Shown in pieces: positions 1,926 to 64,000 of a stretch of DNA of 64,000 nucleotides; the first letter of the stretch is position 1; each line of letters starts with the position of its first letter. The DNA is taken from contig JBAZUV010000001.1 of NCBI GenBank assembly GCA_041661185.1, positions 35,616 to 99,615 on the forward strand, given 5' to 3'. This DNA comes from Elusimicrobiota bacterium. Its GTDB lineage: Bacteria > Elusimicrobiota > Elusimicrobia > UBA1565. The notes under the pieces are model-generated. The model made no database searches and had not been told where the DNA came from. It worked only from the letters and a program-made list of their open reading frames with translations. The translations under genes were made by a program, and so were the position numbers.

Positions 1926-4915
<2,990 letters not shown>

Positions 4916-5036: not shown

Positions 5037-6422
<1,386 letters not shown>

Positions 6423-14250: not shown

Positions 14251-14269
14251 GATCCTCTCCTCGCTCCTC

Positions 14270-14340
14270 GCCTCCCCGGCGGAAGCCGGGGCCCAGGTTT
14301 CGATGTGTTCCTGGATTCCGGCTTCCGCCGGAATGACGGA
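14270..14340. repeat. two copies (inverted relative to each other) of the dispersed GTCAYYCCGGCGRAAGCCGGRRYCCAG hairpin repeat
   Basis: CTCCCCGGCGGAAGCCGGGGCCCAGG (14270-14297) and CTGGATTCCGGCTTCCGCCGGAATGACGGA (14311-14340, reverse orientation) lie in the xseA-xseB spacer. Each forms a 7-8 bp stem with a GNRA-like loop. Confidence 0.8.
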
Positions 14341-15654: not shown

Positions 15655-16973
15655 GCGGTCTTCTTGCCTTTCTTGCGAAGCTTGCGCAGGCGCTCGGCCA
15701 TGGCCGCTTCCCCGCCTTCCTCGGTGGGCTCGTAGAAGGCCTTGGACTGGGGCATGTATTCCTGCGGCACATGGTGTCCCGGGAAATCGTGGGGGTACTT
15801 GTAGCCTTTCCCGTGGCCGCGGGTCTTGGCGTCCATGGAGGCGTCGCGCAGGTGCAGGGGGACATCCCGGCTCGGGCCTTCGCGCACCTCGCGCAGGGCC
15901 GCGTCCACTCCCAGGTAGGCGGCGTTGGACTTTGCCGCGCAGGCGATGAAGGTCACGGCTTGGGCCAGGGGGATGCGGCATTCCGGCATGCCCAGTACTT
16001 CCACGGACCGGAAAGCGGCCGAGGCCACGAGCAGGGCGCGGAAATCCGCGTTGCCCACGTCCTCGCTCGCGCAGATGAGCACGCGCCGTGCGATGAAGCG
16101 GGGGTCTTCTCCGGCTTCGAGCATCTTGGCCATCCAGTAGAGCGCGGCGTCCGGGTCCGAGCCCCGCATGGACTTGATGAAGGCGGAGATATGGTCGTAG
16201 TGCTCATCGGAGGATCGGTCGTAGCGCACGCTGCGATGCTGGATGGATTCCTCGGCGTTCTTAAGGTCTATGCCGCGGGTCCCGTCCATTCCCAGCGGGG
16301 TCGTGAGCGCGGCCAGTTCCACGGCATTGAGCAGGCGCCGGGCGTCTCCCTGCGCGCAGCGAAGAAGATGCGCGCGCGCGTCGGCTTCCAGGCGCAGATG
16401 CAGGCAGCCCACGCCGCGCTCCTCATCGGACAGGGCGCGGTCGAGGATCACGGCCAGGTCTTCCTCGCGATGCGGCTTGAATTCGAAGGCCGTGAAGCGC
16501 GAGAGAAGGGCCGCGTTGACGTAGAAAGAGGGGTTCTCGGTCGTCAGGCCGATGAGGGCCAGGTCTCCTCGCTCCACGAAGGGCAGGAGCACGTCCTGCT
16601 GGGTGCGGTTGAAGTGATGAATCTCATCGACGAGAAGGAGCGTGCGGCCGCCGGAGGCCAAGCGCATGCGCGCGGTCTCGACTGCCTGCTTGAGATCGGC
16701 CACCCCGGCGGCCACGGCGTTGAGCTCCAGCACCTGGGACTTCGTCTTGTCGGCAATGACGCGCGCCAAGGCGGTCTTGCCCGAGGCCGGAGGCCCGAAG
16801 AAGAGCACCGAGCCCACGCGGTCGGCCTCGATGAGCCTGCGCAGCATGCGGCCGGGGCCCAGCAGATGCTCCTGGCCCACGAACTCTTCAAGGCCGCGCG
16901 GGGCCATGCGGGCCGCCAGAGGCCGGTCCTTCAAGGGCGTTTCTTCGGGGAAGAGTCCTTTGCGCGCGCTCAA
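15651..16973 (-). CDS. rarA: replication-associated recombination protein A (AAA+ ATPase)
   Basis: Walker A FFGPPASGKTALA, LLLVDEIHHFNR.QQD.LLP.VE.G...LIG.TTENP and the MgsA C-terminal block HYD.ISAFIKS.RGSDPDAALYW.A.MLE.GEDP.FIARR. Confidence 0.95.
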   Translation of the reverse strand: MSARKGLFPEETPLKDRPLAARMAPRGLEEFVGQEHLLGPGRMLRRLIEADRVGSVLFFGPPASGKTALARVIADKTKSQVLELNAVAAGVADLKQAVETARMRLASGGRTLLLVDEIHHFNRTQQDVLLPFVERGDLALIGLTTENPSFYVNAALLSRFTAFEFKPHREEDLAVILDRALSDEERGVGCLHLRLEADARAHLLRCAQGDARRLLNAVELAALTTPLGMDGTRGIDLKNAEESIQHRSVRYDRSSDEHYDHISAFIKSMRGSDPDAALYWMAKMLEAGEDPRFIARRVLICASEDVGNADFRALLVASAAFRSVEVLGMPECRIPLAQAVTFIACAAKSNAAYLGVDAALREVREGPSRDVPLHLRDASMDAKTRGHGKGYKYPHDFPGHHVPQEYMPQSKAFYEPTEEGGEAAMAERLRKLRKKGKKTA

Positions 16974-17278
16974 GGGGTCGTAGCGCTCCGAGACTCCAAG
17001 GCGGACTGAAGAGAGACGATCATGGACTCCACGTTCTTCTCCTCGGAGCGGCTGAAGGTCTCGGTCTGCGAGCGCAGCTTCTGCAGGTCGGCTGCGAACT
17101 CGATGGCCGTGAGGATGGCGAGCTTGGAGGAGTCCACGGTCTTGGTCTGGCGTTCGAGCTCCTTCATCTTGTCGGTGACCTGCTGGGCCAAACCCAGGAT
17201 CTCCAGCTGGGTGAGCCCCTCGATCTCCAAGCGGAGCTTGCGGCCGTAGACCTCTACGTCGACTTTTTCATTGATCAT
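16970..17278 (-). CDS. zapA: cell division protein ZapA
   Basis: 102 aa. The V.V.VYGRKLRLE... N-terminus followed by a coiled-coil is typical of ZapA. Its stop overlaps the start of the downstream rarA by 4 nt, and its start overlaps the stop of the upstream coiled-coil gene by 4 nt. Confidence 0.85.
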   Translation of the reverse strand: MINEKVDVEVYGRKLRLEIEGLTQLEILGLAQQVTDKMKELERQTKTVDSSKLAILTAIEFAADLQKLRSQTETFSRSEEKNVESMIVSLQSALESRSATTP

Positions 17279-17529
17279 GAAGCGATCTCAAGGGCGCGGT
17301 CGAGCTTGTTGCCGAGCCGTTCCAGGCGCGCGCGCAGGCGGACCTGCCGTTCGCCCAGCTGGCGCAGGCGGCGCAGCTCCATCTCCAGGCGGCCGTTCTC
17401 CTCTTCGAGCCGCGCGTTCTCCGCGCGCGTCTTGGCCATGTCTTCTTCCAGCTTCTTGACGCGGCGGGACGCCTCGACGACGAGTTCTTTGAGCTGGCTG
17501 AGCTTGGCTTCGCGAGGTCCTGTAGCCAT
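17275..17529 (-). CDS. small coiled-coil protein (ZapB-like)
   Basis: 84 aa, heptad-rich and charged (LKELVVEASRRVKKLEEDMAKTRAENARLEEENGRLEMELRRL..). It sits immediately upstream of zapA and is translationally coupled to it. Confidence 0.6.
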   Translation of the reverse strand: MATGPREAKLSQLKELVVEASRRVKKLEEDMAKTRAENARLEEENGRLEMELRRLRQLGERQVRLRARLERLGNKLDRALEIAS

Positions 17530-17547
17530 GGGCTATGCAGGCATCCC

Positions 17548-19935
17548 TCAGCGCAGGCGGCCGCCGAGCTCGGTCTGGAGCAGGGCGAGAGCCTTCTCCA
17601 TGGAGGCCGCGACTTCCGCGTCCGTGAGGGTCCTCTCCAGCGAGGAGAAGCTCAGGCGCAGGGTCAGGCTGCGGTCCTCGGGAGCGATGCCTTTTCCGGT
17701 GAACACGTCCACGAGCTCCACGCGCGAAAGCATGGCGATGGAGAGACCGTGAAGGGCCGTTGCGATCTCTCCGTAGCTTCGGGTGCGGGGGAATAGCAGG
17801 GAAAGGTCGCGGACAACGGAGGGAAATGGAGAGACGGCCGCGGGCGAGCGGCGTTCGGCCTTGCCCGCGAGTTCGGCCAAGGCATCCAAGTCCACGGTGA
17901 GTCCCGCGGCAGGCCGTCCAGTCAGGTCGAAGGCCGCAAGCAGGCGAGGATCGAGCGAGCCGGCCCAGGACATGGCCGCTCCGTTCAGGGAAGCGCCCAC
18001 GCAGGCCTTTGGATGGAAGATGCTTCCTCCCTCGCAGGGCATGGGCGCCTGCGAAGCAGGCAAGAGGAGTTCCAGCAGGCCCTTGGCATCGTAGAAATCC
18101 GCGGGACGCGTCTTGTCTCGCCAATGCGGCCGCGCCAAGGACTCTCCGAGGAAGAGCGCGGAAAGGAAAGTCTTCTCCTGCACGGATTTCCCGTCTTCGC
18201 CGAGCGCGTAGACCCGTCCGATCTCGAAGAGGCGCAGGTTTTGCGCGCCGCGGTCCACGTTGTGCGCGGCCGCGCGCAGAAGGGCGGGCCACAGCGAGGT
18301 TCGCAGACGGGCCTGTTCGTCGGAAAGCGGGTTGCCGATCTGGGCGGAGCGCAGGGCGCCGCGTTCGCACCAAGCCAGGGCGGCCTCGCTGGAAAGATCG
18401 TAGTTGACGGCCTCGAAGAAGCCCTGCGCGGCCATGAGCGCGCGGGCCGTTGAGCAGGTCTTCACTATGGCAGGCTCGGGGTGCGCGGGCAGGGCCGCGG
18501 GCGCAGGCGCGTCCGGGATCGCATCGTAGCCGATGTGGCGGGCGACTTCCTCGGCAACGTCCTGCAGGATGCAAAGGTCGGGCCGCCAAGAGGGCGGATG
18601 CAGGACCCAGCCCTCGGCGGAGTCCTCCAGACGCTCGGATAAAGAGGAGAGCAGCGGCCTCAGTTGGGCGTTATCCAGGGAGGTTCCCAGTACACGATTG
18701 ATGTCCGCCGCGTTTAGGCGGATGGACGGAGTCTCGCGGCGGCCCGGATACGCGTCCACCGCGGCTCCGGCAGAGGGCTTGCCGCATAGGCGCATGATGA
18801 GCTCCGAGGCGCGCGCCGAGGCCAGGGCCGCGCATTCCGGATCGGTCCCGCGCTCAAAACGGTAGGAGGATTCCGAACGCAGCCCCAAGCGGCGGGAAGT
18901 CGCGCGCACCGAGCCGGGCTTGAAATGAGCCGCCTCTAAAAAGCAGGCAGTGGTCTTGTTCGTGGAGCCCGTGGGCATGGAGCCCATGACTCCGGCCAGG
19001 GCCACGGGCCCGGACTCGTCGGCGATGACGAGGTCCGAGTTCTGGAGCTCGTAGGTCTTGCCGTCCAAGGCCGGGAGCTTCTCTTGAGCGCGGGCGCGGC
19101 GCACGAAGAGCTTCTCGCCCTTGAGCGTCGCGGTGTCGAAGACATGCAGGGGATGGCCGTACTCGAAGAGCGCGTAGTTGGTGATGTCGACTAAAGCGTT
19201 GATGGGCTTCTGCCCGACGGATTCGAGCCTGCGGGCCAGCCAGCCCGGAGAAGCGCCCACGCGCAGGTTCTTGAACTCCCGGCCGATGTAGCGGCCGCAG
19301 AGCTCAGGCTCCGCGATCTCCACGGGCCGCGTGCGCACCGAGGCGTCCTCGGCGACGGCTGCACGTCGGGGAGGCGGCAGGGATTTGCGCAGGTGCACGC
19401 CGATCTCTCGGGCCAGGCCGAAGACCGAGAGGCAGTCGGGGCGGTTGGCCGTGACTTCGACTTCAAAGACCGTGTCCTTTTCCGCCAGCAGGGCCGCCGC
19501 GTCCGCGCCCACGGGGACGGCCTCGTCGAGTACCAGGATGCCCGAGGCTTCCCCGGAGAGCCCCAATTCGGAAGTCGAGCAGAGCATCCCCAGGGATTCC
19601 ACGCCGCGGATCTTGGTCTTGGAGATGAGGAATCCGCCGGGGAGCTTGGCGCCGGGCAGGGCGAAGGGCACTCGCTGTCCCTGGGCCACGTTGGGCGCTC
19701 CGCAGACCACGGAATATATCTCCTTGCCGTCGGAGACGCGGCACAAGGAGAGCCGGTCGGCGTTGGGGTGCTTCTGCACCTCCAGCACGTGGCCGATGAC
19801 CACTCCCGAGAACGCGGGTCCCAGGGCCTCCATGGAGTCCACGTCGAAGCCCAAGGACGGGAGCATGCGCAGAAGTTCGTCAGGCGAGAGCGGGACAGGC
19901 AGGAACTCCGAGAGCCAGCGGTGCGAGATCTTCAT
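17548..19935 (-). CDS. pheT: phenylalanine--tRNA ligase beta subunit
   Basis: 795 aa. MKISHRWLSEFL N-terminus, tRNA-binding domain (HPNADRL..C.V..G), B3/4 and B5 domains, and a C-terminal FDX-ACB-type block (..RDLSL...). It follows pheS. Confidence 0.95.
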   Translation of the reverse strand: MKISHRWLSEFLPVPLSPDELLRMLPSLGFDVDSMEALGPAFSGVVIGHVLEVQKHPNADRLSLCRVSDGKEIYSVVCGAPNVAQGQRVPFALPGAKLPGGFLISKTKIRGVESLGMLCSTSELGLSGEASGILVLDEAVPVGADAAALLAEKDTVFEVEVTANRPDCLSVFGLAREIGVHLRKSLPPPRRAAVAEDASVRTRPVEIAEPELCGRYIGREFKNLRVGASPGWLARRLESVGQKPINALVDITNYALFEYGHPLHVFDTATLKGEKLFVRRARAQEKLPALDGKTYELQNSDLVIADESGPVALAGVMGSMPTGSTNKTTACFLEAAHFKPGSVRATSRRLGLRSESSYRFERGTDPECAALASARASELIMRLCGKPSAGAAVDAYPGRRETPSIRLNAADINRVLGTSLDNAQLRPLLSSLSERLEDSAEGWVLHPPSWRPDLCILQDVAEEVARHIGYDAIPDAPAPAALPAHPEPAIVKTCSTARALMAAQGFFEAVNYDLSSEAALAWCERGALRSAQIGNPLSDEQARLRTSLWPALLRAAAHNVDRGAQNLRLFEIGRVYALGEDGKSVQEKTFLSALFLGESLARPHWRDKTRPADFYDAKGLLELLLPASQAPMPCEGGSIFHPKACVGASLNGAAMSWAGSLDPRLLAAFDLTGRPAAGLTVDLDALAELAGKAERRSPAAVSPFPSVVRDLSLLFPRTRSYGEIATALHGLSIAMLSRVELVDVFTGKGIAPEDRSLTLRLSFSSLERTLTDAEVAASMEKALALLQTELGGRLR

Positions 19936-22106: not shown

Positions 22107-22187
22107 GCGAAGAGAACTATACCATCTTTCGTCGAAATGGTCAATCTAATATCTCGACCTCACCCATTTTTGTGGGCGGGGCCCGAC

Positions 22188-22314
22188 GCGCAGGGGATGC
22201 ACTCTCCCTTCCCCCGCACCCCTGGGAACCAGTTTCCCCCAAACCCGCGGCGTGAGCGACTCGGGCAATGGCGGGGCCCCCCTCTACGGGAGCGGGAGAG
22301 TGCATCTCCTGCGC
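22188..22314. repeat. 127-bp long palindromic element (21-bp terminal inverted arms)
   Basis: GCGCAGGGGATGCACTCTCCC (22188-22208) pairs with GGGAGAGTGCATCTCCTGCGC (22294-22314) with one mismatch. It lies in the infC-upstream / hybrid-kinase-downstream spacer. Confidence 0.6.
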
Positions 22315-22466
22315 GCCTTCCGCTGGTTTCTTTGGGTGAGTTCGAGTCGGGGGCAGGGGTCGTTCGTTAAGGACGGTCGTTTCTGAGAATTCTTCTTCCC
22401 TGCTTTATTGTCAGCGGCTTCAACAGGAAAACGATCTCGTTGAAAATAGTGAGATGTCAGCGAGCG

Positions 22467-24023
22467 TCAGCCTGAGCGTGGGGAGTTTCGGCGCTCCATG
22501 TCTAAGAGGCGGAAGACTTTGTCCAGGAACGCCTTCTTATAAAAGGGCTTGAGCAGGATGTCCGCGGCGCCCTGGCGCGCGGCTTCCGAGGCCGCGTCGC
22601 GGTGCCCGGTGATCACGAGCGTGGGCACGCGCCGATCCTCCGGAAGATGCTGCATGCGCTGGAGGATCTCCAAGCCGCTGATGCCGGGCAAAAGGAGGTC
22701 CAGGAGCATGAGGTCGTAGCGGCTGCGCTCGATCATGTCGAGCGCGTCCTGGCCGTCGTGCGTGGTGGAGATGACCAGGTTCTCGGAGATGCCGGCCAGG
22801 AAGAGACGCAGGATCTCCACCATGCCGGGGTTGTTCTCCACGATGAGGATTCGCTTCTTGTCGAGCTTGCGCTGGCTCTCCACGAGCACCTGCGGGGTGT
22901 CGGGCTCGGTCAGCGGCAGCGCCATGCAGGCCGTGGTGCCCTTGCCGGGACCGTCGGATTCGATCCAGATGCGTCCGCCGTGGAGCTCCACGATCTGGCG
23001 AGAGAGAGCCAGGCCGATGCCGAGTCCGGGCGTGCCGCGCGTGAGCTCTTTCTCTGTGTGGTAGAAGCCGTCGAAGATGTGGGAGAGGGCGTCCAAGGGG
23101 ACGCCGCGGCCTTCGTCCCGGACCTGGATCCAGACCTCGCGCGCGGGCCGGGGCTTGAGCGCGACCTGGATGCGGCTGTTGTCCGGGCTGAACTTGCAGG
23201 CATTCGAGATGAGGTTCTGCAGGACCTCGGCGAAGGGTTCGGGGTCGGCCAGTATCCAGACGGGTCCGGGCGTGATGTCTTTCTCGATGAGGATGCCGCG
23301 GGGCGGCTCGGACCAGCGCGAGCGCAGGTGCTCGGCCATGAGGGCGCCCAGATCCACGGGCCGAAGGAGCACGTGCTGGGTGCCGAGCGCGGATTCCTTA
23401 AATGAGAGGAGGCGGTTGATCATCTGCAGGAACTGCTCGCCCCGCGAGCGGATGGCCGTGACCGCGGCCTTCTGGGGAGGGGAGAGTTCGCCGAACTCGC
23501 CTTCCTCCAGGGTCTTGGCATAGCCCAGGATGACGGCCAGGGGGGTGCGGAGTTCATGGCTGACGCCCGCGATGAACTCGTCCTTCATCTTGTTGACCGC
23601 GCGAAGCTCGAAGTTCTCGGTCTGCAGGGACTGGACGTCAAGGGCCCGGTGGATGAGGTGCTGGAAGTCGACTTCCGTGAGCTCGGTGCGGGAGATGTAG
23701 TCCATGGCCCCGCGCTTCATGGCCTCGACGGCGACCTTTTCCTTGCCGATGGAGGAGACCATGATGACCACGATCTTGGGGTGGAGCTGGCGGATCTGAT
23801 CGAGGACCTTGAGGCCGTCGTCGTCGGGGAGCCAGTAGTCCAGGAAAACGACGTCGAAGAAGCTTTCGCGCAGCATGCCGAAGGCGGTCTGGGCGTCGCC
23901 GGCGTCCTCGACCTCGAGGGCGACGTCCTTGACGTCGGAGAGGCGTTCTCGCAGGAGCTCGCGGTTGGCGGGTTCGTCGTCGACGAGCAGTACGCGTATC
24001 CTCTGCAAAGTGGGCTCTGTCAT
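22467..24023 (-). CDS. hybrid sensor histidine kinase, REC-HisKA-HATPase-REC, no transmembrane or obvious sensor domain
   Basis: 518 aa. N-terminal receiver (RVLLVDDEP...VVFLDYWLPDDDG), H-box FIAGVSHELRTPLAVILGY, N/G boxes (NLISNACKF, DEGRGVP, GTPGLGIGLALSRQIV) and a C-terminal receiver (ILIVENNP...LMLLDLLLPGISG). Confidence 0.9.
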   Translation of the reverse strand: MTEPTLQRIRVLLVDDEPANRELLRERLSDVKDVALEVEDAGDAQTAFGMLRESFFDVVFLDYWLPDDDGLKVLDQIRQLHPKIVVIMVSSIGKEKVAVEAMKRGAMDYISRTELTEVDFQHLIHRALDVQSLQTENFELRAVNKMKDEFIAGVSHELRTPLAVILGYAKTLEEGEFGELSPPQKAAVTAIRSRGEQFLQMINRLLSFKESALGTQHVLLRPVDLGALMAEHLRSRWSEPPRGILIEKDITPGPVWILADPEPFAEVLQNLISNACKFSPDNSRIQVALKPRPAREVWIQVRDEGRGVPLDALSHIFDGFYHTEKELTRGTPGLGIGLALSRQIVELHGGRIWIESDGPGKGTTACMALPLTEPDTPQVLVESQRKLDKKRILIVENNPGMVEILRLFLAGISENLVISTTHDGQDALDMIERSRYDLMLLDLLLPGISGLEILQRMQHLPEDRRVPTLVITGHRDAASEAARQGAADILLKPFYKKAFLDKVFRLLDMERRNSPRSG

Positions 24024-24098
24024 CCCCGCATTCTACCTTAAAACATCGTGCGGAGTCCCTGATGAAAAGAGGGAAGACGGATTATGTGCGGCGGGAGT

Positions 24099-24211
24099 CA
24101 AGGGATATGGGTTCGCGGGGCCGCATCGCCTCTCCGTTCGGACGATGCTTTATCCTCACCCGATCGGTACCGCGATCGGGTTCCGGACACCCCGCAAACC
24201 CATATCCCTTG
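24099..24211 (+). repeat. 113-bp structured palindromic element, copy A (22-bp outer arms enclosing two internal hairpins)
   Basis: Outer arms CAAGGGATATGGGTTCGCGGGG / CCCCGCAAACCCATATCCCTTG. Internal hairpins are GCATCG..CGATGC and CCCGATCG-GTACCG-CGATCGGG, separated by TTTATCCTCA. The core is homologous to the reverse complement of 25656-25734. Confidence 0.65.
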
Positions 24212-24388
24212 CCCCCCGCCGCCGTGGTCCGCACCCTTCATTGAACGGGACAGAAAACAGAGACAGACGCCTGATGAAACAAGGCAGAATGGCGGACATT
24301 TCATCGCTGGTCGTTCAGTAAGGAAAGCCGAACCTTGGCGGGGGCCCCTGCCCCCGGCCATCGTGCGCGCACCCTTATGACAGGTCCT

Positions 24389-24421
24389 AAACTTGATGTT
24401 GCAAAACGCAACATCAAGTTT
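24389..24421. terminator. hairpin terminator downstream of the toxin-antitoxin operon (possibly bidirectional)
   Basis: Perfect 13-bp stem AACTTGATGTTGC / GCAACATCAAGTT with loop AAAAC. A/T-rich flanks on both sides. It starts 37 nt past the toxin stop. Confidence 0.5.
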
Positions 24422-24457
24422 TCGATTTCCTCTGCCGTCAATTGAAAGACGAAATCC

Positions 24458-24715
24458 TCAGATATCTTTATAGGTTCGTTCGGAGCGTCTTAGGACGTGG
24501 AGAACGGTGACGTTTTGTCGATTATCATCGATGGCATAGAGTATTCGCCAGTTGCCGACACGGACTCGATGGAGGGCGCCTTTGAGTTTGAGCGACCCAT
24601 GCGGACGGGGATCATGTTCTAGTGAGAGGATGCGCGAGCGCAGTCGGGAGAGGTCCGGCTCATGGATATCGTCAAGGTCGCGGACAGCGCTGGCCGCGAT
24701 CAGGACTTCATGCAT
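24458..24715 (-). CDS. type II toxin, RelE/ParE family
   Basis: Track ORF 24458..24736 trimmed to MHEVLIAASAVRDL at 24715. ..L...P.P.GS.KLKG....RVRVGNWRILYAIDD....V.VLHV..RSE.Y is the RelE/ParE pattern. It overlaps the upstream antitoxin gene by 8 nt. Confidence 0.8.
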   Translation of the reverse strand: MHEVLIAASAVRDLDDIHEPDLSRLRSRILSLEHDPRPHGSLKLKGALHRVRVGNWRILYAIDDNRQNVTVLHVLRRSERTYKDI

Positions 24716-24944
24716 GTTTGCTCGCTCGTTTGGCAAAGTAGTCCTTGGCCGAGACGGCCTTGCCGGGGTTCTTTAGATGCACTTTCCAGGCTTTCTGGGC
24801 CGTCTGTAAATCTTCAAGTTCTTCGCTGTAAGTCGATTCCACGGCCTTGCGCAGCAAGTCCGCCATGGGACAATGCATCTCGATAGCCAAGTGCTTAAGG
24901 CCGCTATGTAAGTCTTCCGGCAAATAAATCGTTGTTCTGATCAT
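24708..24944 (-). CDS. type II antitoxin, ribbon-helix-helix (CopG-like)
   Basis: Track ORF 24708..25019 trimmed to MIRTTIYLPEDLHSGLKHLAIEMHCPMADLLRKAVE, an RHH N-terminus. It sits immediately upstream of, and overlaps, the toxin gene. Confidence 0.7.
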   Translation of the reverse strand: MIRTTIYLPEDLHSGLKHLAIEMHCPMADLLRKAVESTYSEELEDLQTAQKAWKVHLKNPGKAVSAKDYFAKRASKHA

Positions 24945-25162
24945 AGGGATACCTCTTGGCATAGTATGACATACAAACATACATATGTCAATGGCAGTTT
25001 CAGTTGGCTGAGTTCTCACCAGACGGGTTTAAGAAATCGTTCAGCATTCGAACTCTCCCTATCCCCAATTACGACCGACCCCTGAAAAAGTTCCCGTGCC
25101 GAAGGATTTCCCAGCGGATTGCTGGTCGATTCCGTGCCGGTGCTGTGTCTTGGAAAGATGTT

Positions 25163-25390
25163 TTAATTGCTTGGTGAAGAGTGAAGATGCCGGACTACTT
25201 TCTCTGCGAGTGCCCCGAGAACGGCGCCGAGAATCCCGCCAAACAGAGGGAACAGTCCCTGATTCAAGATGACCGATGGCTGTCCGGCAAAGAAGTCAAT
25301 GAGGAATGTCTTCTCGATAATGACTCCTCCGATAAGCCCAAGAAGGGCTCCTGTTCCCATGAGCCAAATTAAAGGGCGAACTTTTTTCAT
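25163..25390 (-). CDS. small membrane protein (two predicted TM helices)
   Basis: 75 aa, MKKVRPLIWLMGTGALLGLIGGVII...LFPLFGGILGAVLGALA. A GAGAGGAA Shine-Dalgarno sits about 8 nt upstream. Located in the lower-GC segment. Confidence 0.5.
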   Translation of the reverse strand: MKKVRPLIWLMGTGALLGLIGGVIIEKTFLIDFFAGQPSVILNQGLFPLFGGILGAVLGALAEKVVRHLHSSPSN

Positions 25391-25624
25391 ATGTGGTTCC
25401 TCTCAATATTTTCAATAGGGACCCCAATGCATCAAATTGTATTTTAAAGTGCAATTAGATGTATGTATGGCTACAAGATCGCGTAATGGGTTCATGGTTG
25501 AGCCTGATATCTGTTTATTGGGGCGCGGGGGGGAGTTCGTTTCAGGAAAATATTCCCCCGCGCGGTCTCGCCGCCGATTCTTCTGAGGAAACTTCCTCTG
25601 AATCATGAGGGGTAGCGGGGAACA

Positions 25625-25765
25625 GCTCCGGCAGAAGGGGGAGGATAAGGGTCCGAAGGGGTGTCCGCAAGCCGATCGCGGAACCGATCGGCTGAGGATA
25701 AAGCCTCGCCGCACGGAAAGGCGAGGCGGCCCCGCGGACCCTTATCCTCCCCCTTCTGCCGGAGC
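25625..25765 (-). repeat. 141-bp structured palindromic element, copy B (30-31-bp perfect outer arms), inverted relative to copy A
   Basis: Arms CTCCGGCAGAAGGGGGAGGATAAGGGTCCG (25626-25655) and CGGACCCTTATCCTCCCCCTTCTGCCGGAG (25735-25764) are perfectly complementary. The reverse-complemented core has hairpins GCCTCGCC..GGCGAGGC and GCCGATCG-GTTCCG-CGATCGGC around TTTATCCTCA, matching copy A. Confidence 0.65.
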
Positions 25766-25866
25766 CCGGGAGCGCTTTCCCCTCTGTTTTTAGGGGAATT
25801 CGTTGAATCGGGGGTGGGATTAAGGTATCCTATCGGCGATTTCATAGAGGGGAAAATCGCCGAGAT

Positions 25867-33231: not shown

Positions 33232-33810
33232 TTGGGGGCGCAAGCTATTCTTCCATTTATGATGCGCGGCAAGATGAAGAGACCGTCGGGGAGCAGAGAA
33301 GTGCGTCGCAAGGCTCTTTTTCCCCGGCATTCCGGCAGAAGCCGGGGTCCAGCAAGCAGGGTTCTTCCAAAGGAAGAGGATACTCTGCGTGCGGCCGGTT
33401 CTCTGGCGGACTGCGTGCGAGAATCCGGCGAGGGAGCGCTCATCTGCTTGCGGGGACCCTTGGGCAGCGGGAAAACGGTCTTCGTCCGCGGATTCTTGCG
33501 AAAGCTCGGGCATAAGGGCGCTGTGCGCAGCCCCACCTTCGGTCTTATCCACGAATACCGCCGTTTGCGGCCGCAAGTCCTTCATCTGGACCTTTATCGT
33601 CTAAAACCCCGGGAATCCGAGGGCCTGGGCCTGCGCGAACTCCTACGCGTGAGCGGCTGCGTCTTCCTCATCGAATGGCCCGAGGCCGCCCAGGCCCTTC
33701 TTCCCAAAGACCGCCTGGAACTTTCCTTCGCCCATGTCCCCAACGGCGGCCGCCGCCTGCGCCTGCGCGCCCTCGGTCCTCGTTCCAGACGCCTCACCGC
33801 CGCGTTCTGA
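33232..33810 (+). CDS. tsaE: tRNA threonylcarbamoyladenosine biosynthesis protein TsaE (start uncertain)
   Basis: Conserved core from ..VLPKEEDTLRAAG..., with P-loop LRGPLGSGKTVFVRGFLRKLG, SPTFGLIHEY, HLDLYRL and IEWPE. The 30-40 codons upstream of the core include a copy of the dispersed hairpin repeat. Confidence 0.85.
   Translation: MGAQAILPFMMRGKMKRPSGSREVRRKALFPRHSGRSRGPASRVLPKEEDTLRAAGSLADCVRESGEGALICLRGPLGSGKTVFVRGFLRKLGHKGAVRSPTFGLIHEYRRLRPQVLHLDLYRLKPRESEGLGLRELLRVSGCVFLIEWPEAAQALLPKDRLELSFAHVPNGGRRLRLRALGPRSRRLTAAF
33321..33352 (+). repeat. degenerate copy of the dispersed hairpin repeat, inside the 5' end of the tsaE ORF
   Basis: TCCCCGGCATTCCGGCAGAAGCCGGGGTCCAG, translated in frame as FPRHSGRSRGPA. 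Confidence 0.7.
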
Positions 33811-33825
33811 TCCCGTTCGTTATGT

Positions 33826-33946
33826 CGTCACTCCGGAACAAACCGGTCCGCTCGTCATTCCGGCGAAAGCCAGGACTTGTGTTCCGTCATTCCGGCGGAA
33901 GCCAGGATTTGTGTTCCGTCATTCCGGCGAAAGCCGGAATCCAGGG
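33826..33946 (+). repeat. tandem array (one degenerate plus three good copies, about 32-bp period) of the GTCATTCCGGCGRAAGCC(A/G)G.. hairpin repeat
   Basis: GTCACTCCGGAACAAACCGGTCCGCTC / GTCATTCCGGCGAAAGCCAGGACTTGTGTTCC / GTCATTCCGGCGGAAGCCAGGATTTGTGTTCC / GTCATTCCGGCGAAAGCCGGAATCCAGGG. It lies between convergent tsaE and the alpha/beta hydrolase gene. Confidence 0.85.
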
Positions 33947-33951
33947 ACTGT

Positions 33952-57687: not shown

Positions 57688-58455
57688 ATGGCAGAGTTCG
57701 AACTGAAGGTCAACATCCGGTCCGGAAAGAGCACCAAGAAAAGTCTCACGGACCTGCGCAAGGATTACTTGGTCCCCGGCATCGTCTACGGCGGCAAGGG
57801 CACCAACATCCAAGTCACCGTTTCCGAGAAGGAGCTTCTCGGCGCGCTCAAGCAGGGGGGCAAGAACGTCCTGCTCCATCTCAAGCACGACCAGGGCGAG
57901 GACACCGTGATCATCAAGGCCTTGCAGAGGCACGTGATCAGCAGCCGGCCCATCCATGCCGACTTCCAGCGCGTCTCCATGACCGAGAAGATCGAGGTCA
58001 GGGTGAAGCTCGTCATCATCGGCGAGGCCCCGGGCGTGAAGCTCCAGGGCGGCATCCTGGAGCACGTGCTGCGCGAGTTCCGCGTGCGCGCGCTGCCCAA
58101 TGCCATCCCCCAGAGCATCGAGGTGGACATCAAGGCGCTCAACCTGGGAGACATCATCCACGTCGGCGAGGTCGCGATTCCCGCGGGGATCGAGGTGCTC
58201 GACGACGCCCAGCAGATGGTCGTCCACGTCGTGGCCCCGACCGAGCTCGAAGAGAAGCCCGCAGCTGAAGGCGAGGCCGGAGCCGCAGAGCCCGAACTGC
58301 TTGCCGTCAAGGGCAAGAAGGAAGAGGGCGAGGACGGCGAAGCCAAGCCTGCCGGCAAGGGCGATGCAAAGCCCGCGGCCGGAAAGGGCGACGCCAAGCC
58401 TGCGGCCGGAAAGGCGGACGCCAAGCCTGCCGGCGGAAAAGAAGGCAAGAAGTAG
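57688..58455 (+). CDS. rplY: 50S ribosomal protein L25 / general stress protein Ctc, with Lys/Ala/Pro-rich repetitive C-terminal tail
   Basis: ..R...GK...R.LR....VPGIVYG........V.V...E........G....L.L......D.VIIKALQRH......IHADFQRV and the second Ctc domain are present. The tail has GDAKPAAGK-type repeats. Confidence 0.93.
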   Translation: MAEFELKVNIRSGKSTKKSLTDLRKDYLVPGIVYGGKGTNIQVTVSEKELLGALKQGGKNVLLHLKHDQGEDTVIIKALQRHVISSRPIHADFQRVSMTEKIEVRVKLVIIGEAPGVKLQGGILEHVLREFRVRALPNAIPQSIEVDIKALNLGDIIHVGEVAIPAGIEVLDDAQQMVVHVVAPTELEEKPAAEGEAGAAEPELLAVKGKKEEGEDGEAKPAGKGDAKPAAGKGDAKPAAGKADAKPAGGKEGKK

Positions 58456-60690: not shown

Positions 60691-60739
60691 TGTCTCCTTA
60701 TTCCGTCCCTATTCGTTGGTCTGTGAGGTGTTTCTATTC

Positions 60740-60804
60740 GTCACCCCGGCGAAAGCCGGGGCCCAGCCGACTGTCGTCATTCCGGCGAAAGCCGGAATCC
60801 AGCC
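60740..60804 (+). repeat. two direct copies of the dispersed hairpin repeat
   Basis: GTCACCCCGGCGAAAGCCGGGGCCCAGCC (60740-60768) and GTCATTCCGGCGAAAGCCGGAATCCAGCC (60776-60804). They lie between convergent genes. Confidence 0.85.
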
Positions 60805-62892: not shown

Positions 62893-62926
62893 AAGGACGT
62901 TCGCTTTTGAAGGAGATATTTCAGCC

Positions 62927-64000
62927 ATGGCAAAACTAACCCTTGAAGCCCTGACGAGCCACCTCTGGGAGTCCGCCAATATTCTCAGGGGGAGTATCGA
63001 CGCTTCCGACTACAAGAACTATATCTTCGGCCTTCTTTTTCTGAAGAGGCTGTCCGATGTCTTCGATGAAGAGGCCGAGAAGCTGCTCAAGGAGGGCAAG
63101 AGCAAAAAAATCGCCTTGGAAGACCCGGACGAGCATGAGTTTTTCGTGTCGCCCAAAGCCCATTGGAATCATCTCACCGGCTTGACCCACAACCTGGGAG
63201 ATGCCATCAACAAGGGCAATGACCTTCTTGAAGAGCACAACCGAGTTTTGGAGGGAGTCCTTTCCGCCACGGACTTCAATGATAAGGACCGGCTGCCGGA
63301 CAGCACCCTGGCCAAGCTTATCATCCACTTCTCCAAGATCAGGCTTCGCAATGGGGACCTTGCCGAGCCCGATATGCTCGGCCGGGCCTATGAATACCTC
63401 ATCGCCCAATTCGCCGATGACGCCGGCAAGAAGGGCGGCGAGTTTTATACGCCCAAAGAGGTCGTCACCCTGCTGGTGGAAATCCTGGACCCGCGGGAAG
63501 GCATGTATGTCTGCGACCCTGCCTGCGGTTCCGGGGGAATGCTGGTCCAGGCCGTCTACCATCTCAAGTCTTTGCGGCAGAACACCAGGAACATCGTGCT
63601 CCACGGGCAGGAGCGCAACATCGGGACCTGGGCCATTTGCAAGATGAACATGCTCCTGCACGGAATTTCCGGCGCCCGGATCGAGAAGGGAGATACTATC
63701 CGGGAGCCCAAGCTCTCGCAGAAGGGCAAGCTCATCGAGTACGACACGGTGATCGCGAATCCGCCGTTTTCTCTCAAGAACTGGGGCATCGAATCGGCTG
63801 AGAGCGATTCCTTCGGCCGGTTCAAGTACGGCATCCCGCCTCAAAGCTACGGCGATTTCGCTTTCGTCCAGCACATGATCGCCACGCTCAAACCCACGGG
63901 CCGGGCAGGCATCGTGCTGCCCCATGGCGTGCTCTTCCGGGGAGGGGCCGAGGGCAAGATCAGGCAGGGCATTCTCGAAGAGGATCTGGTCGAGGCGGTG
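62927..64000 (+). CDS. hsdM: type I restriction-modification system, DNA methyltransferase subunit M (partial; runs off the right edge)
   Basis: Absent from the ORF track (edge-truncated). Translation is MAKLTLEALTSHLWESANILRGSIDASDYKNYIFGLLFLKRLSDVFDEE... (HsdM N-terminal domain). It continues with GEFYTPKEVV, motif I DPACGSGGML and motif IV ANPPFS. GC is lower than in the flanking genes. Confidence 0.93.
   Translation, partial: MAKLTLEALTSHLWESANILRGSIDASDYKNYIFGLLFLKRLSDVFDEEAEKLLKEGKSKKIALEDPDEHEFFVSPKAHWNHLTGLTHNLGDAINKGNDLLEEHNRVLEGVLSATDFNDKDRLPDSTLAKLIIHFSKIRLRNGDLAEPDMLGRAYEYLIAQFADDAGKKGGEFYTPKEVVTLLVEILDPREGMYVCDPACGSGGMLVQAVYHLKSLRQNTRNIVLHGQERNIGTWAICKMNMLLHGISGARIEKGDTIREPKLSQKGKLIEYDTVIANPPFSLKNWGIESAESDSFGRFKYGIPPQSYGDFAFVQHMIATLKPTGRAGIVLPHGVLFRGGAEGKIRQGILEEDLVEAV

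Follow-up and report, generated by a model that had tools for sequence, protein, structure and literature searches.

The described systems closest to the DNA considered here are the bacterial palindromic repeats of the MITE (miniature inverted-repeat transposable element) type, which include ERIC (~127 bp), Correia, RUP, and Chunjie. Repetitive extragenic palindromes (REPs) are simple hairpins of 20–40 nt that occur in high copy number and are associated with RAYT transposases. A MITE is defined by a length below ~400 bp, a core without a transposase gene, terminal inverted repeats that fold into a long stem-loop and match those of a resident insertion sequence, a large number of dispersed copies, and a target-site duplication; MITE-type repeats are often found at gene 3′ ends, where they are co-transcribed and affect mRNA fate, and MITE-like pairs can mobilize the DNA between them (PMC3184786). 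One of these repeats, Chunjie, is predicted to form RNA stem-loops of about −98 to −130 kcal/mol (PMC3184786). Here, we analyze two long palindromes, copies A and B, that lie in inverted orientation in a 64-kb stretch of DNA (‘the window’) from a metagenome-assembled genome of an Elusimicrobiota bacterium, part of ENA contig ERZ27249449:k141_26092 (154,776 bp). Together with the 8.6 kb past the window end, ~72 kb of the source genome was covered. The two copies bracket a small toxin–antitoxin (TA) cassette between a hybrid histidine kinase gene and hpt, and a third copy, C, was found in another metagenome contig. A and B are most likely a new low-copy, lineage-restricted palindromic intergenic repeat of a MITE/ERIC-like kind, rather than a proven new RNA.

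Three copies of a branched palindrome

Copies A and B are the two longest local hairpins, or inverted repeats, of the window. In A, arms of 33 nt (24088–24120 and 24190–24222) are 91% complementary; in B, arms of 36 nt (25625–25660 and 25730–25765) are 94% complementary. Both pairs of arms are separated by 69 nt, so that the elements measure 135–141 bp, and the 69-nt core contains no open reading frame (ORF) matching any family. The first-pass annotation of this locus, made from the sequence without database searches, placed B correctly but cut A short, at 24099–24211; with a 5-bp helix and a small hairpin outside the arms, the structured unit is larger still, spanning about 24056–24232 for A and 25615–25797 for B. 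In A, the 5-bp extension pairs ACGGA (24077–24081) with 24228–24232, and the small hairpins of the two tails read TCCCT..AGGGA (A, 24056–24074) and TCCCCT..AGGGGA (B, 25778–25797). The predicted fold consists of a long closing rod (about 31–36 bp) followed by a three-way junction that bears two inner hairpins, P2 (AGCCGATCG-CGGAAC-CGATCGGCU) and P3 (GCAUCG...CGAUGC). Its predicted stability, −89 to −119 kcal/mol, is far below that of shuffled controls (z −8.5 to −15.4; 0 of 200 shuffles as good), and DNA parameters predict the same fold as RNA parameters.

The two copies are homologous. Reverse-complemented B matches A at 87–90% (24103–24193 versus 25658–25747), in line with the roughly 85–90% estimated earlier for the shared core, and the full alignment has 85% column identity. 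A 31-nt core pattern hits only the A and B sites in 64 kb, where the chance expectation is 0. The covariance model built from all three copies (R1) scores A at 158 bits on the minus strand and 52 on the plus strand, and B at 152.6 bits on the plus strand and 65 on the minus strand.

The earlier idea that further copies might exist elsewhere was borne out by copy C (L004 1490–1626, in contig Ga0172379_10000276), the sole match of a pattern scan in the JGI metagenome collection. Its 34-nt arms also enclose 69 nt. Copy C follows a lower-GC gene of the Zeta_toxin family and a small ORF, is solitary within the 1.5 kb available upstream, and ends 35 nt before TTGACA-17-TATCCT, the promoter of a membrane histidine kinase gene. 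Each of A, B, and C thus has a small foreign islet of toxin type on one side and a host promoter on the other.

When the copies are aligned in a common orientation (A minus, B plus, C plus), the fold comprises 54 predicted pairs, and 98.8% of the pair cells are standard. Fifteen of these 54 pairs have changed on both sides across A, B, and C with pairing kept, values that none of 500 shuffles reaches, and sliding the partners by 1–3 columns, as a control, lowers pairing to 38–53%. This upholds the first-pass description of two inverted, homologous, multi-stem palindromes in which numerous double changes leave the pairing intact. The compensatory changes it singled out in the inner hairpins are also real: between A and B, GCATCG/CGATGC is replaced by GCCTCG/CGAGGC, and, at the base of the CCGATCG hairpin, a C-G pair by G-C, so that both P2 and P3 carry double changes. 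Of the 15 double changes, six are of the transversion type and have no wobble intermediate. The unpaired junction sequences, UGAGGAUAAAGC and GGGGUGUCCG, are conserved.

Identity declines from the centre outwards, from 87–93% in the core through 68–89% in the proximal arms to 37–60% in the flanks. The outer arms had been described as unrelated between the copies yet complementary within each. Complementary they are, but the dissimilarity is confined to the distal 16 nt, where B shares 44–50% with A or C (81–100% between A and C), while the proximal ~18 nt are 75–89% identical between A and B. Although the distal arms of B pair perfectly, their sequence has almost no relation to that of the distal arms in A and C. 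Copy C combines an A-like part, its distal arms and P3, with a B-like part, its proximal arms and P2, a mosaic implying exchange within a larger set of copies than the sampled one. The flanks of A and C are alike for about 20–100 nt on either side (local alignment ~5 standard deviations above shuffles), and their tails are homologous (score 31 versus 15.5 ± 3 for shuffles).

The step from a conserved core with unrelated stems to selection on the fold is weaker than it was first put. Besides the homology of the proximal arms, replication template switching can create or mend entire stretches of a stem at one stroke (PMC8794818), and both the transversion-type double changes and the perfectly paired but dissimilar distal arms of B match its output, so that covariation in the rod alone is no proof of fold selection. 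No direct repeat that could be a target-site duplication flanks the hairpins of A, B, or C, the ~106-nt conserved inner unit, or the block as a whole. The notion of a small element inserted in pre-existing host palindromes was rejected because no empty copy of the distal-arm palindromes exists within the window and the arms are of equal length.

The element is not equivalent on its two strands. On the opposite strand, the mirrored structure has 93.2% of its cells paired, as against the 98.8% of the common strand. All nine wobble cells are G·U on the common strand and A·C on the opposite one; as they fall on 5 pair positions (about p = 0.06, two-sided), 2 of which are conserved at the junction, this asymmetry is suggestive only. 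As RNA, the common strand is also predicted to fold better: copy A reaches −102.3 kcal/mol on it and −88.6 kcal/mol on the other, and copy B −118.7 and −114.8 kcal/mol. Beyond the extended rod, A, B, and C each carry, on the common strand alone, a tract with 8–9 U and 13–14 pyrimidines per 15 nt (CUUCCCUCUUUUCAU, UUCCCCUCUGUUUUU, and CUUCCCUUUUAUUAU) and then the small hairpin; a simple terminator scan was passed by the tail of B alone. A, B, and C share one orientation relative to the adjoining host gene, with the sense strand toward the host promoter. The strand asymmetry of the G·U pairs and the U-rich tail favors an outward-facing role at the RNA level.

Relatives of the element were sought widely. 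A scan of Rfam at gathering and permissive thresholds, which had been proposed earlier, produced no family above threshold, the only hits being sub-threshold plant and animal microRNA-precursor models, i.e., generic long hairpins. There were 0 matches in a junction-pattern scan of a genome-representative collection and in two-pattern scans of a viral contig collection, and blastn of the element found no match among plasmids and phages or, with word size 11, in 5,426 E. coli genomes. Five translated element frames, compared with 5.8 billion predicted proteins, revealed no spurious ORFs covering further copies. Model R1 detected no further copy in the window (filters off), in the 8.6 kb beyond, or in ~25 loci of related Elusimicrobia (default filters), but only generic hairpins (≤24 bits), including palindrome D described below. 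One literature search turned up no description of a palindromic repeat from Elusimicrobiota.

Several known classes were considered for the element and rejected. A hammerhead or other ribozyme does not fit, as CUGAGGA is present without GAAA after stem II and Rfam is silent. A purine-type riboswitch for hpt is excluded by the conserved hpt promoter downstream of B, which leaves B outside the 5′ untranslated region; Tn3-type 38-bp ends by the lack of a GGGG tip and an ACGYTAAG motif; and a retron or other reverse-transcriptase-linked non-coding RNA by the lack of a reverse transcriptase.

An assembly artefact was likewise rejected. The A–cassette–B layout recurs in independent Logan contigs of two other runs, SRR6484324 and SRR18595301, and so does not stem from a single assembly. 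These Logan contigs terminate within the arms of copy B, and unitigs from two runs break off precisely within the arms of both B and palindrome D (L002 1–30, L003 1–30, and L085 1–30 and 3349–3378). Since long perfect hairpins fragment k-mer assemblies, such elements are under-sampled in short-contig collections, and their rarity in databases is only weak evidence of true rarity. Metagenome collections are thus likely to contain too few of these elements and of the islands next to them.

The inserted block and its neighborhood

The kinase gene (minus strand) and hpt (plus strand) are divergent, with promoters back-to-back, and are separated here by a spacer of 1843 nt. In five related lineages, the same spacer measures about 91 nt (L005, kinase identity 74%), 111 nt (L098, 73%), 125 nt (L095–97, 69%), 143 nt (L099/100, 70%), and 206 nt with an unrelated small hairpin inside (L088, 79%), and all five keep the hpt promoter, TTGAAY-17-TATCCTATCG, and the kinase −10 box. 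In this comparison, of the kind that the first-pass annotation had suggested for orthologous infC–hpt loci, the block is absent from these lineages, so that the whole A–cassette–B block with its tails (1.75 kb) is a lineage-specific insertion. The nearest relative is 79% identical in the kinase, a distance at which the exact junctions of the block and any duplications are unreadable; by Hpt, the closest species-representative relative is UBA9639, with 69% identity. The features of the locus are collected in Table 1.

Table 1. Elements, genes, and promoters of the kinase–hpt spacer (positions in the window; TA, toxin–antitoxin; RHH, ribbon-helix-helix)
Feature	Position	Strand	Description and basis
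Copy A	24088–24222	minus (sense), facing the kinase gene	long hairpin, 33-nt arms closing the 69-nt three-way-junction core; inverted-repeat search, fold, R1
Copy B	25625–25765	plus (sense), facing hpt	long hairpin, 36-nt arms, 69-nt core; inverted-repeat search, fold, R1
Outer tail of copy A	24056–24087	−	3′ half of the 5-bp stem extension, pyrimidine/U-rich tract, small hairpin
Outer tail of copy B	25766–25797	+	stem extension, terminator-like GGGAGCGCTTTCCC and CTCTGTTTTT, small hairpin
ParE/RelE-family toxin gene	24458–24715	−	85 aa; PF05016, 34.4 bits (cut-off 23)
Putative RHH antitoxin gene	24708–24944	−	78 aa, overlaps the start of the toxin gene; RHH_1, 19 bits (below the cut-off of 20.5)
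TA operon promoter-like site	24963–24991	−	TTGACA-17-CATACT with TG, inside the conserved operator-like block ATTGACATATGTATGTTTGTATGT
AT-rich palindrome	24389–24421	.	perfect, 14 bp, just downstream of ParE; the TA module's own terminator-like hairpin
Small hydrophobic/membrane ORF	25163–25390	−	75 aa (65 aa, from Met11, in another assembly's call)
Host hpt promoter	25803–25831	+	TTGAAT-17-TATCCT; conserved in relatives without the insertion; −35 box 37 nt after copy B
Host kinase −10 box	24030–24035	−	TAGAAT, 6 nt before the start codon; conserved in relatives; copy A 52 nt away

The block interior is lower in G+C than its surroundings (0.44–0.57 versus 0.59–0.70), as had been noticed at first sight, and the G+C at third codon positions (GC3) is 0.54–0.58 in its genes versus 0.8–0.9 in host genes. 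As to the reported RelE/ParE–RHH pair and small membrane protein, the toxin is confirmed as ParE, while its partner stays below the RHH threshold and the membrane ORF is an orphan, with no homologues among 1.84 billion representative proteins. The putative RHH gene is retained upstream of ParE in three other Elusimicrobia loci (L089, L090, and L092).

RHH–ParE homologues with 76–81% protein identity are found at unrelated loci of other Elusimicrobia without the element, and the homology there spans promoter to stop codon only. Since the TA module occurs without the element and copy C is solitary, the elements are not obligate ends of the cassette, contrary to one of the first-pass proposals. 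Related genomes with the TA cassette but not the elements had been named beforehand as an outcome that would count against the first-pass reading.

The TA promoter region ATTGACATATGTATGTTTGTATGTTA (24963–24995) is near-invariant across four genomes (the window, L089, L090, and L092) whose TA genes are only 76–81% identical, and is probably the operator of the antitoxin. In L089, the RHH–ParE module lies between ~40-nt direct repeats (about 5690–5740 and 6270–6320; GGCGGACAGGCTGGAAGCGTT.TATAAGGAAGT.GGGTAG), a pattern that suggests site-specific or duplicative integration of the bare module; a counterpart of this repeat was looked for in the window, and there is none. On the host side, the TAGAAT box stands 6–8 nt ahead of the kinase start codon in the window (24021–24035), L005 (9907–9921), L094 (1213–1229), and L095 (3989–4003), which suggests that the kinase mRNA is leaderless or nearly leaderless.

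The pheST-infC-kinase-hpt neighborhood gathers differing toxin modules by lineage. For instance, L098 has a HipA_C gene after the kinase (2284–3651), and L088 has a RES-domain toxin pair after pheT (16602–17926).

Other palindromes and islands are present in the genome. Palindrome D (22187–22315) has 22-nt arms, 95% complementary, with 85 nt between, and its sequence bears no relation to A, B, or C. It lies within the kinase–infC spacer (22107–22466), which measures 360 nt here versus 2–54 nt in relatives, and its predicted fold is more stable on the minus, gene-sense strand (−93.1 kcal/mol, as against −77.9 kcal/mol on the other); one Logan contig breaks off within its arm. A REP-like family of GC-rich hairpins (CGTCATTCCGGCGAAAGCCGGAATCCAG) has at least 7 copies, some in inverted pairs, including those at 14269–14340, 33325–33352, 33853–33948 (three tandem 32-nt units), and 60739–60802, and is shared with the genome that carries copy C (L004 411–478). 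With D and this family present, long palindromic insertions are a general trait of the genome. A type I restriction-modification island (HsdM, HsdS, an HNH protein, and HsdR) runs from about 62900–64000 into L101 1–9672, and the ORF at 62936–63925 there has a low GC3 of 0.58. Finally, the gene for ribosomal protein L25/TL5 has at its 3′ end a 27-nt tandem repeat in 4 copies (58336–58439), which is translated into a repeated peptide rich in Gly, Lys, Ala, and Pro.

Possible roles and rival explanations

We favor the reading of the element as a MITE/ERIC-like repeat with an outward-facing role in ending, processing, or insulating transcripts, and put its probability, tentatively, at roughly 45%. 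Such a role at the RNA level best fits four features: the G·U pairs and the U-rich tail are each confined to one strand, the orientation does not vary, and every copy stands between a foreign islet and a host promoter. The element would be copied into RNA outward, from the islet to the host gene; its stable rod and U-rich tail would then end or process transcripts leaving the islet, as a terminator, a target of RNase III, or a protected 3′ end, and the adjacent host promoter would thereby be insulated. Pairing is probably kept by template switching between the arms, which would rewrite whole arm segments, and probably also by selection on a transcript that tolerates G·U pairs. If this reading is correct, it would show how small foreign cassettes, TA modules among them, can be tolerated between packed, divergent housekeeping promoters, namely by bringing their own transcript-stopping hairpins.

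Several observations weigh against it. Copy B is not downstream of a credible co-oriented gene, the sole plus-strand ORF being a doubtful 61-aa call, so that B could act as a terminator only on spurious or antisense transcripts; the TA operon already has a terminator-like palindrome of its own (24389–24421). The U-rich tract is offset several nt from the stem instead of abutting it, the G·U asymmetry has the modest significance given above, and a simple terminator needs no 69-nt core conserved at 87–93%. Only three copies are known, two in the ~72 kb of the source genome and one in another contig, and the near side of the type I restriction-modification island has no element of the A/B type. 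Moreover, the missing target-site duplication and the unconserved arm tips leave a classical, transposase-driven MITE mechanism unsupported.

The rival that survives best, although we consider it unlikely, is that A and B form the inverted ends of a non-autonomous composite transposon, like an integron mobilization unit (IMU) or the TIME-composites, served by a transposase in trans, with the fold being incidental. It would account for the absence of the entire block from the orthologous site in five related lineages, for the inverted copies with their tails outward, as terminal repeats are, and for the compositionally foreign interior, and MITE-like pairs have a precedent for moving the DNA between them (PMC3184786). 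A transposase should bind at the outermost arm and tail, however, and these are the least conserved parts (44–60%). The block ends have no target-site duplication, copy C is solitary within its 1.5 kb, the TA module moves without the element, and no transposase is encoded in about 72 kb, where no insertion sequence (IS) was seen either.

More doubtful is the proposal that the element is the gene for, or a cis module of, a new structured RNA, with its function in the core and the stem serving processing or stability. Candidates of this kind include protein-binding RNAs, ribozymes, and regulators. The 87–93% identity of the core with its conserved unpaired junction bases, the two conserved junction G·U pairs together with the confinement of every wobble pair to one strand, the double changes in both inner hairpins, and the consistent orientation to neighboring genes all speak for it, but core conservation may simply reflect recent copying. 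No Rfam family rises above noise, no convincing promoter lies upstream of the element, a perfect stem of 31–36 bp is atypical for regulatory RNAs, and pattern scans of genome, metagenome, and viral collections left three copies in two genomes only. Equally doubtful is the wider form of this idea, i.e., a new structured RNA class or strand-specific folded nucleic acid whose three-way-junction core, on a stem of RNase III length, forms a functional module at the outward edges of mobile toxin islets. Such a module may be a device dedicated to insulation or processing, or the structure that a hairpin-specific mobilization system recognizes; foreign cassettes could then settle beside housekeeping promoters and leave them undisturbed.

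Somewhat less probable again is a functionless selfish or relic palindrome, paired through template switching or arm-to-arm conversion and accidental in position and orientation. Template switching can create and repair perfect stems in one event (PMC8794818), and the 6 of 15 transversion-type double changes, the very low copy number, and the distal arms of B, which look newly written in that they pair perfectly at 44–50% identity to A and C, are what it would leave behind. It does not lead one to expect the one-sided G·U pairs and U-rich tail or the same orientation in 3 of 3 copies, and the mosaic copy C implies exchange among more copies than are seen. Were it true, the locus would be a tidy example of template switching and little more.

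Least probable, and by some way improbable, is a recombination site used as folded single-stranded or cruciform DNA (attC- or pdif-like) that marks the capture of toxin cassettes: the position on the 3′ side of small promoter-carrying toxin modules (RHH–ParE before A, zeta toxin before C), the 9-6-9 inverted repeat of P2, which is of the kind bound by tyrosine recombinases, the size and imperfect palindrome reminiscent of long attC sites, and the TA-insertion hotspot in relatives (HipA in L098, the RES toxin in L088) are set against almost perfect stems, the lack of an integrase or Xer-like gene nearby, a TA module that integrates elsewhere without the element and is flanked by the ~40-nt direct repeat in L089, and a G·U asymmetry that points to RNA.

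Comparison with described systems

The likeness to integron attC sites lies in an imperfect palindrome of up to ~140 nt, on the 3′ side of small and often toxin–antitoxin cassettes, with a stem structure conserved beyond its sequence. Unlike attC, the element has no R/L boxes (RYYYAAC/GTTRRRY), its ends reading GCGGCGGG.../...CCCGCCGC and GCTCCGGC.../...GCCGGAGC, and it has no bulged or extrahelical bases and no central unpaired spacer. The copies are inverted and not direct as in cassette arrays, the cassette has its own promoter, and neither the window nor the 8.6 kb beyond encodes an integrase, a transposase, or a reverse transcriptase.

With REPs and their compound forms (BIME, REPIN), the element shares the character of a GC-rich extragenic palindrome whose stems are kept by paired changes; it differs in being four times longer, branched, and rare. 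Similarly, it resembles intrinsic terminators and the terminator hairpin at the IS200 end: a stable GC-rich hairpin stands at the border of a mobile segment and has a U-rich tract after it on one strand only. Compared with a terminator, the stem is 3–4 times longer, the U tract is offset, and the core is conserved and branched; compared with IS200, the direction is reversed, since the hairpin here faces outward, as if to block transcripts that leave the segment, and inward in IS200.

IMU and the TIME-composites of Tn3-derived miniature elements offer the closest parallel to the block as a whole: two small non-coding inverted-repeat elements bracket passenger genes, and the whole block is missing from orthologous sites. 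In contrast to them, the block lacks a 5-bp end duplication and matching IS or transposase ends, and the element also occurs singly, as the passenger TA module occurs without it.

For the element itself, the nearest match is the MITE/ERIC type. Like a MITE, it is small (135–141 bp) and intergenic, has long terminal inverted repeats, lacks a transposase gene in its non-coding core, and folds into a long stem-loop; its extreme predicted stability, −89 to −119 kcal/mol, lies in the range reported for Chunjie. It shows no sequence similarity to ERIC or other E. coli repeats, no target-site duplication, and an inverse pattern of conservation, with the arm tips the least and the core the most conserved part; three copies are known. 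The element is thus MITE-like but set apart by its unconserved arm tips and missing target-site duplication and, above all, by a branched three-way-junction apex with conserved unpaired bases. If the outward-facing insulator reading is right, a branched, conserved-core element from Elusimicrobiota would be added to the palindromic repeats of bacteria.

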